DNA of 64,000 nucleotides from Escherichia phage P1. The stretch lies in the sequence record AF234173.1; one strand, written 5' to 3'. Below are positions 51,352-51,417 of the stretch, piece by piece. The notes under the pieces were generated by a model. That model saw only the letters and a list, made by a program, of their open reading frames with translations, was not told the origin of the DNA and did no database searches. The stretch's first letter is position 1. Each line of letters opens with the position of its first letter. A program made the translations under genes and the position numbers.

Positions 51352-51368
51352 ATTGCTCTAATAATTCC
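51352..51368 (+). promoter_or_regulatory. C1 operator-like site
   Basis: ATTGCTCTAATAATTCC. Confidence 0.5.
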
Positions 51369-51376
51369 ATATTTTT

Positions 51377-51406
51377 AAAACGTGATGTACACTCATCACG
51401 TTTTTT
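51377..51406. terminator. bidirectional hairpin terminator
   Basis: AAAACGTGATGTACACTCATCACGTTTTTT. Confidence 0.55.
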
Positions 51407-51417
51407 ATTAGAGCAAT
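51401..51417 (-). promoter_or_regulatory. C1 operator-like site, inverted
   Basis: TTTTTTATTAGAGCAAT. Confidence 0.5.

Follow-up and report, generated by a model that had tools for sequence, protein, structure and literature searches.

The 81-bp gap between genes pmgQ and pmgR of phage P1 carries a 66-bp element in which two inverted C1 operator sites flank a hairpin. Across lineages, the two sites and the hairpin are both conserved; selection acts on the hairpin as plus-strand RNA, and, early in infection, transcript levels step up at this boundary. In our judgement, it is somewhat better than an even bet that the element is a compact operon boundary, in which terminator, promoter, and repression overlap within 66 bp; both termination at the hairpin and the site of the transcription start are predicted. 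The element is ordinary in kind and involves no new mechanism, and its discovery value is small, as GenBank already lists the operator pair for both P1 and P7. Three points are new: the hairpin as an apparently strand-specific, covarying RNA element; the indication, from public RNA-seq tables, of an active early promoter in the gap; and the suggestion, from sequence comparison, that the −10 element of this promoter is the hairpin loop rather than the annotated TAAAAC. The start of the pmgR transcript and the end of the upstream late operon are useful to know for P1 engineering and when polar effects in knock-down screens are interpreted. Phage-plasmids of the P1 type are widespread and carry resistance genes. 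The element also illustrates tight packing, with 66 bp accommodating two repressor sites together with a promoter and a terminator.

The pmgQ–pmgR gap and its C1 operators

The analysis was carried out on a 64,000-nt stretch of P1 DNA (the window). Positions 50600–52000 of the window are 100% identical to positions 81400–82800 of the phage P1 record AF234172/NC_005856, and near the element a window coordinate equals the AF234172 coordinate minus 30800. Elsewhere, 12,301 nt of the window (35400–47700) align in two pieces to 12,620 nt of AF234172 (record 65881–78500), so that 319 bp of AF234172, located somewhere in record 65881–78500, are missing from the window; a single A-to-G difference is also found in pap (record 83921; window 53121). 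As a whole, the window represents a derivative of P1, distinct from the exact record AF234172.

According to the list of open reading frames and the AF234172 annotation, pmgQ (50649–51350, plus strand) is the last gene of the pmgL–pmgQ operon and ends with a TAA stop codon at 51348–51350. This operon is served by σ70 and late promoters and has its own annotated C1 operators, Op82 and Op83. The element sits inside the 81-bp gap that follows. The next gene on the same strand, pmgR (51432–51650; ATG at 51432–51434), is preceded by a Shine-Dalgarno sequence, AAGGTG, at 51422–51427, and is the first gene of the operon under the element's control; the second is pmgS (51652–52914, plus strand). The pmgR–pmgS unit is closed by a terminator-like plus-strand hairpin at 52934–52962 (11 pairs, six of them G-C, and then a T run; −17.6 kcal/mol), which lies 20 nt past the pmgS stop codon and ahead of pap, and is absent from the GenBank annotation. 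The morphogenesis gene pmgR is essential for P1 (PMC9024508), while its direct knock-down by CRISPRi gave no phenotype (PMC10695390). CRISPRi essentiality data were therefore unusable as proof of operon independence.

The left operator, OpmgRa (former Op86a), ATTGCTCTAATAATTCC, occupies plus-strand positions 51352–51368 and is separated from the pmgQ stop codon by 1 nt; AF234172 lists it as a protein_bind feature for phage repressor C1 at record 82152–82168. The right operator, OpmgRb (former Op86b), occupies 51401–51417 (record 82201–82217) and reads ATTGCTCTAATAAAAAA on the minus strand, the plus-strand letters being TTTTTTATTAGAGCAAT. Both are labelled in AF234172 as monovalent C1-controlled operators with pmgR and pmgS as the stated targets, and the same two sites are annotated in the P7 record AF503408 as Op(sht[a]) and Op(sht[b]). 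The two inverted C1-operator-like sites recognized in the sequence-only reading thus coincide exactly with annotated C1 operators of both phages, and the coordinates which that reading gave for the sites and for the hairpin arms were all correct. The operator pair is therefore an already known, annotated feature of P1 and P7. A full-text literature search, whose reach did not include the P1 genome paper (PMC523184), returned nothing relevant on Op86, OpmgR, or PpmgR.

The operators span 66 bp from end to end and lie 49 bp apart, centre to centre. Their cores are perfect inverted copies of each other over 13 nt (51352–51364 with 51405–51417). Each site matches the asymmetric 17-bp C1 consensus, ATTGCTCTAATAAATTT, at 14 of 17 positions; the 13-nt core is perfect, and the mismatches are confined to positions 14–17, which are variable in other operators too. 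A search of the window with the 17-mer consensus, allowing up to three mismatches, gave 14 matches against 0.31 expected, and none of 100 shuffled sequences reached 14. The matches of Op86a and Op86b to the consensus are not due to chance. Op86a is identical at 16 of 17 positions to Op99e/Oc1e (63924–63940), one of the annotated Op99 operators of the c1 region, which lies at the end of the record matched by the window. Relatives that have the same sites carry a gene for a C1-family repressor (PF27008 in locus L098). From the record annotation, on which C1 binding rests, we infer that C1 occupies both Op86a and Op86b.

Variation among 81 loci of the P1 clade was used to compare the parts of the element. 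A single column of the 26 in the two operator cores varies, and none in the Op86a core, against 12 of the 40 columns between the cores (Fisher p = 0.011); at the 3′ end of pmgQ, 38 of 201 columns vary. The operator cores are the most constrained part of the element within the P1 clade, and lineages with about 71% nucleotide identity retain them too.

Conservation and folding of the hairpin

Homologous gaps were compared in 81 P1-clade viral contigs, in Cronobacter phage JK004, in Salmonella phage-plasmids, in loci L095, L090/L091, and L092/L093 (whose PmgS homologues are 53–63% identical), and in loci L339, L340, and L342. The order of stop codon, operator, spacer, hairpin, inverted operator, Shine-Dalgarno sequence, and ATG is kept in all of them, and the 66-bp operator-to-operator span is kept in all P1-like lineages compared. 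Outside the P1 clade, the layout is found in five further lineages (JK004, the Salmonella plasmids, L095, L090, and L092), whose PmgS proteins are 53–71% identical. A scan of genome contigs for the element returned only two near-identical loci, and a pattern scan of metagenomes returned mostly chance one-strand matches, plus further P1-clade copies.

The hairpin is formed by core arms CGTGATG (51381–51387) and CATCACG (51394–51400), which enclose the loop TACACT (51388–51393). The arms are perfect, as the sequence-only reading had it, but the loop is 6 nt long, not 7. Flanking AAAA and TTTT lengthen the stem to 11 perfect pairs (51377–51387 with 51394–51404), so that the whole stem-loop of the putative intrinsic terminator extends over 51377–51404 of the plus strand. 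It lies 30 nt downstream of the pmgQ stop codon and is off-centre between the operators, with 12 nt separating Op86a from the extended stem and 0 nt separating the stem from Op86b. The core stem of 7 bp contains four G-C pairs; it has a folding energy of −8.5 kcal/mol, or −12.9 kcal/mol with the A·U extension, and is followed by TTTTTTATT. The T6 tract at 51401–51406 would serve as the U-tract of the terminator and is, at the same time, the tail of Op86b. A 91-nt stretch folds at −26.9 kcal/mol, with z = −6.65 against shuffled sequences.

The stem changes between lineages while pairing is kept. Arms CGTGATG/CATCACG of P1 correspond to CATGGTG/CACCATG in the Salmonella lineage, to CATGGTG/CGCCATG in JK004, to CGGCATG/CATGCCG in L095 (where the register is shifted), and to GTGTGGTG/CGCCACAT in L090 (where two pairs are G·U). 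In a 12-row alignment that is slightly flattering, being made of nine lineage representatives and three hand-picked P1 variants that retain wobble pairs, 94.6% of the cells pair and three pairs are altered on both sides; controls in which the arms were slid gave 39–72%. When the nine lineage representatives are taken by themselves, pairing holds in 59 of 63 core cells for the plus strand read as RNA, versus 55 of 63 for the minus strand. The plus-strand hairpin has a folding energy of −13 to −19 kcal/mol in eight of the nine, while six of the nine have a far less stable minus-strand fold (−3.7 to −11 kcal/mol), because G·U pairs turn into A·C mismatches. The A run upstream of the stem is lost in JK004 (GAAG) and in L095 (GCGG). 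The asymmetric pairing and the lost A run therefore argue for a sense-strand RNA element rather than a bidirectional terminator, and the pattern of substitutions indicates that the hairpin is selected as plus-strand RNA. The A and T runs which the sequence-only reading had placed on both sides are present in P1, as AAAA and TTTT; a bidirectional reading of them does not hold in other lineages, and a bidirectional terminator was ruled out by the strand asymmetry of folding. Microvariation within the P1 clade was considered as further evidence for the stem and proved uninformative. Variation is seen in 6 of the 14 arm columns, so that the stem does not stand out as conserved there; of the single changes, roughly one half disrupts a pair and the other leaves pairing intact, which is the chance level for transitions.

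The hairpin and its T6 tract resemble an intrinsic terminator, as the sequence-only reading had proposed, and this resemblance, together with conservation with covariation, makes an intrinsic terminator of the pmgL–pmgQ operon its most likely role. Like Rho-independent terminators of E. coli and its phages, it has a 7-bp stem with four G-C pairs, a 6-nt loop, a run of six U, and covariation; unlike ordinary ones, its U-tract is also the tail of a repressor site, and its loop resembles a −10 element. T6 stands directly after the stem in four of the five lineages (P1, Salmonella, JK004, and L095); L090 and L092 have CTTGATT, and termination in these two may be weak. The terminator signal of P1 itself is weak, and a consensus scan flagged no terminator at the hairpin in P1, JK004, or the Salmonella lineage, probably since its greedy stem extension consumes the T run in P1; the L095 homologue was flagged as a plus-strand terminator. 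No terminator feature is annotated in the three stretches of AF234172 that were examined, the pmgQ–pmgR gap included.

Selection on plus-strand RNA would also be expected if the hairpin were mainly an element of RNA stability or processing, that is, either a protective stem-loop at the 3′ end of the pmgQ message or an RNase III site. In the latter variant, the hairpin and a 13-bp helix formed by the operator cores in read-through RNA would be cut to split the upstream and downstream messages. Read-through RNA can indeed be folded into an interrupted helix of 13 + 11 bp (−26.9 kcal/mol), and, in L090 and L092, a strong hairpin (−16 to −19 kcal/mol) is retained although the U-tract is not. However, inverted protein-binding sites produce the outer helix automatically, T6 directly past the stem is a hallmark of termination, and a search of Rfam assigned the element to no family, the sole match being a spurious one to a miRNA precursor, far below threshold. 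We consider a role in stability or processing improbable.

Early transcription and the promoter in the gap

Published RNA-seq tables of P1vir infection were used to follow transcript abundance across the gap. In wild-type cells 10 min post-infection (PMC8201110, Table S1), logFC values were 6.99, 6.95, and 7.05 for the upstream genes pmgP, ppp, and pmgQ, and rose to 9.02 for pmgR and 9.99 for pmgS. The same pattern was observed in the dksA host of that study. In wild-type cells of a second study, devoted to hfq, the values at 10 min were 5.94 for pmgQ, 7.96 for pmgR, and 8.21 for pmgS. The step up from pmgQ to pmgR and pmgS thus amounts to 2–3 log2 units at 10 min, in three of the tabulated infections of the two studies, and therefore points to an early promoter inside the gap.

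The later time point shows a break in kinetics at the same boundary. At 30 min, the wild-type values of PMC8201110 were 11.66 for pmgQ, 10.81 for pmgR, and 11.70 for pmgS. Between 10 and 30 min, seven upstream genes rose by 4.0–4.6 log2 units, while pmgR and pmgS rose by only 1.7–1.8. The upstream rise is the boost from late promoters. The rise of pmgR and pmgS is no larger than that of other early C1-controlled genes in the same data (about 2.0–2.7 for dmt, hrdC, ant1, and parA). This break fits an independent early promoter combined with limited read-through from upstream. A model with two sources of transcripts, based on gene-level fold changes of uncertain normalisation and on the assumption that these are comparable between genes, gives a loose upper bound on read-through, no more than about 0.4 when computed from pmgR and no more than about 0.7 when computed from pmgS. 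A late promoter in the gap was considered and ruled out, as a pattern search of the gap found no late-promoter motif of the Lpa type (−22/−10).

The GenBank record AF234172 contains a σ70 promoter, PpmgR, marked as predicted, with −35 element TTGCTC at 51353–51358 and −10 element TAAAAC at 51376–51381 (51353–51381 overall, plus strand). We scored all −35/−10 pairs in the gap using approximate σ70 position frequencies, which makes the scores an aid to ranking only. In P1 the highest score, 6.4, went to TTCCAT-17-TACACT, whose −35 element (51365–51370) overlaps the tail of Op86a and whose −10 element (51388–51393) is the hairpin loop; the annotated PpmgR scored 5.2 and ranked third. The best candidate had its −10 element in the hairpin loop and its −35 element on the tail of the left operator in six of the six lineages scored: TTTAAT-16-TATCAT in Salmonella, TTTACT-16-TATCAT in JK004 and L095, and TTGATT-16-TATTAT in L090 and L092. 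Positions T1, A2, and T6 of the loop are kept in every lineage though the stems around it change, and outside P1 the loop reads TATCAT or TATTAT. The promoter match in P1 is weak, TTCCAT agreeing with TTGACA at only two of six positions. A consensus scan flagged the promoter with its −10 element in the loop in L095, L090, and JK004; TTTAAT of Salmonella went unflagged, and no promoter was flagged at the element in P1 itself.

The annotated hexamers fared worse in this comparison. PpmgR was outside the top five candidates in every lineage other than P1 and was not flagged by the scan tool. At the place of its −10 element, other lineages have TGAAGC (JK004), TGCGGC (L095), and TAAAGG (L090), and several P1-clade contigs have either TAAAGC or TGAAAC, the latter without the near-invariant A2; the annotated hexamer itself lacks T6. 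Were PpmgR correct as annotated, transcription would start near 51388, in the loop, with Op86a occluding the −35 element and Op86b lying downstream of the start, and the hairpin could still be the terminator of the upstream operon or be incidental. The 5′ arm of the hairpin would be missing from such transcripts too, and the terminator would not stop them; moreover, the P1 score of 5.2 is close to 6.4, the Salmonella lineage also has TAAAAC, and the promoter does stand in the AF234172 record. Weighing these points against the lack of conservation, we hold the annotated promoter to be an unlikely choice, if one that deserves to be taken seriously. The operators and PpmgR of AF234172/NC_005856 and of P7 AF503408 are the same feature as the one described here, with exact agreement of coordinates; the difference is that AF234172 places the −10 element at TAAAAC and has no terminator, while the comparative data favour the hairpin loop and suggest that the annotated −10 element is misplaced. 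The exact hexamers and the start site are given here as predictions.

A promoter on the minus strand, symmetric to the proposed one, was ruled out for P1 on sequence, since its hexamers would be AGTGTA and GGAATT. In three other loci, the scan flagged a minus-strand promoter-like sequence, ATGATA-18-TAAAAT: L003 1763–1792 (JK004), L095 779–808, and L004 1809–1838 (Salmonella). Its −35 element is the complement of the loop and its −10 element is the tail of the left operator, and transcription from it would produce an antisense transcript into pmgQ; P1, with GGAATT at the corresponding place, does not have it.

Proposed arrangement of repression at the boundary

The reading that we favour, with the −10 element in the hairpin loop, assigns two functions to the same DNA. 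As RNA from the plus strand, CGUGAUG-UACACU-CAUCACG followed by six U would act as a Rho-independent terminator and halt transcripts of the pmgL–pmgQ operon. As DNA, it would be part of the early σ70 promoter for pmgR and pmgS, with TTCCAT (51365–51370) and TACACT (51388–51393) as the −35 and −10 elements. Transcription would start near G51400, so that the T6 tract would take positions +2 to +7, and new pmgR transcripts, having no 5′ arm of the hairpin, would escape termination; the escape is expected with either choice of the promoter. A start near G51400 would make the first bases G-UUUUUU and, speculatively, recalls the start regions of codBA and upp. At these two E. coli genes, UTP-dependent reiterative transcription takes place.

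C1 is reported to bind an asymmetric site as a monomer. Two monomers would be placed here on the inverted 17-bp operators, Op86a on the side of the −35 element and Op86b on positions +2 to +18, and the promoter would be closed from both sides in the lysogen. In three other P1 systems, Pdmt/Op68, P1pmgT/Op88, and P4cre/Op99e, a C1 operator likewise overlaps or abuts the −35 element, whose first base is the last one of the operator. As in the proposed promoter, the −10 element is found some 37–46 bp (41–46 bp in these three systems) from the operator start. Those systems have one operator each, whereas here a second, inverted operator lies on the start site, and, unlike in those three, the spacer, the −10 element, and the discriminator also form part of a terminator hairpin. 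Two opposed C1 sites on one promoter are also found in the bivalent operators Op72a/b (ban) and Op99a/b (c1), but their 17-mers overlap (e.g., 37867–37883 and 37878–37894), while the Op86 sites are 49 bp apart and flank the promoter. Repressor sites upstream and downstream of the core promoter are likewise known from gal (OE and OI, bound by GalR) and lac (O1 and auxiliary operators). In gal and lac, dimeric or tetrameric repressors loop DNA over 90–110 bp or more; the 49 bp available here would be very short for a loop.

Distant relatives, with PmgS proteins 23–27% identical, have a different perfect inverted repeat of 15–16 bp, in which AAGATACTAAWWTAT occurs twice (L006 2199–2246, Pantoea plasmid NZ_CP034366; L097 3704–3750, a Logan contig). 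The repeat brackets the −10 element and the start site of a good candidate promoter, TTTACA-17-GATATT, upstream of a pmgR-like gene, and its copies are presumably operators of a repressor of other specificity. The gap in these two loci contains no G+C hairpin and no T run. The bracketing of the promoter in these relatives therefore suggests that the conserved logic consists of two inverted repressor sites clamping the promoter of the operon, and the terminator hairpin appears, from this comparison, to be an addition of the P1-like lineages.

These results bear on what C1 may do at the element. The sequence-only reading had suggested repressor-assisted termination or DNA looping between operons, beyond simple promoter occlusion. 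The RNA-seq step up and the promoter candidates place a σ70 promoter between the operators, so that clamping, i.e., two-sided occlusion of that promoter, suffices to explain the pair. It could still be argued that C1 bound at both sites drives termination as a roadblock, or loops the DNA, and thereby insulates the operons: the operators directly adjoin the terminator, the spacing does not change from lineage to lineage (66 bp overall, 49 bp between centres), and looping by C1 has been reported for other operators of P1. However, promoter geometry and the hairpin already account for the conserved spacing, and the distant relatives keep an operator pair without the hairpin. Judging by its footprint, a polymerase arrested by C1 on Op86b (51401) would stall some 15–20 nt upstream, with the active site near 51381–51386 and the hairpin not yet made, and it would meet C1 on Op86a first. 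In addition, strong transcription of the pmgL–pmgQ operon is confined to late lytic growth, a stage at which C1 is presumably inactive; as this operon is both C1-controlled, through Op82 and Op83, and late, little would be left to terminate while C1 is bound. We consider termination or looping of this kind very improbable, and assistance of termination by the repressor is unlikely. A variant, in which the C1 pair at 49 bp, perhaps bridged by Lxc, clamps the palindrome and forms a repressor-dependent insulator by roadblock or micro-loop, with the 20-bp palindrome doubling as terminator and −10 core, appears very improbable as well.

The C1 operators of this region are packed tightly against the preceding gene. 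OpmgT (Op88), at 53493–53509 of the window, begins at the last base of pap, and this junction of pap and operator is kept in relatives (L004 3423, L090 5153, and L342 4839).
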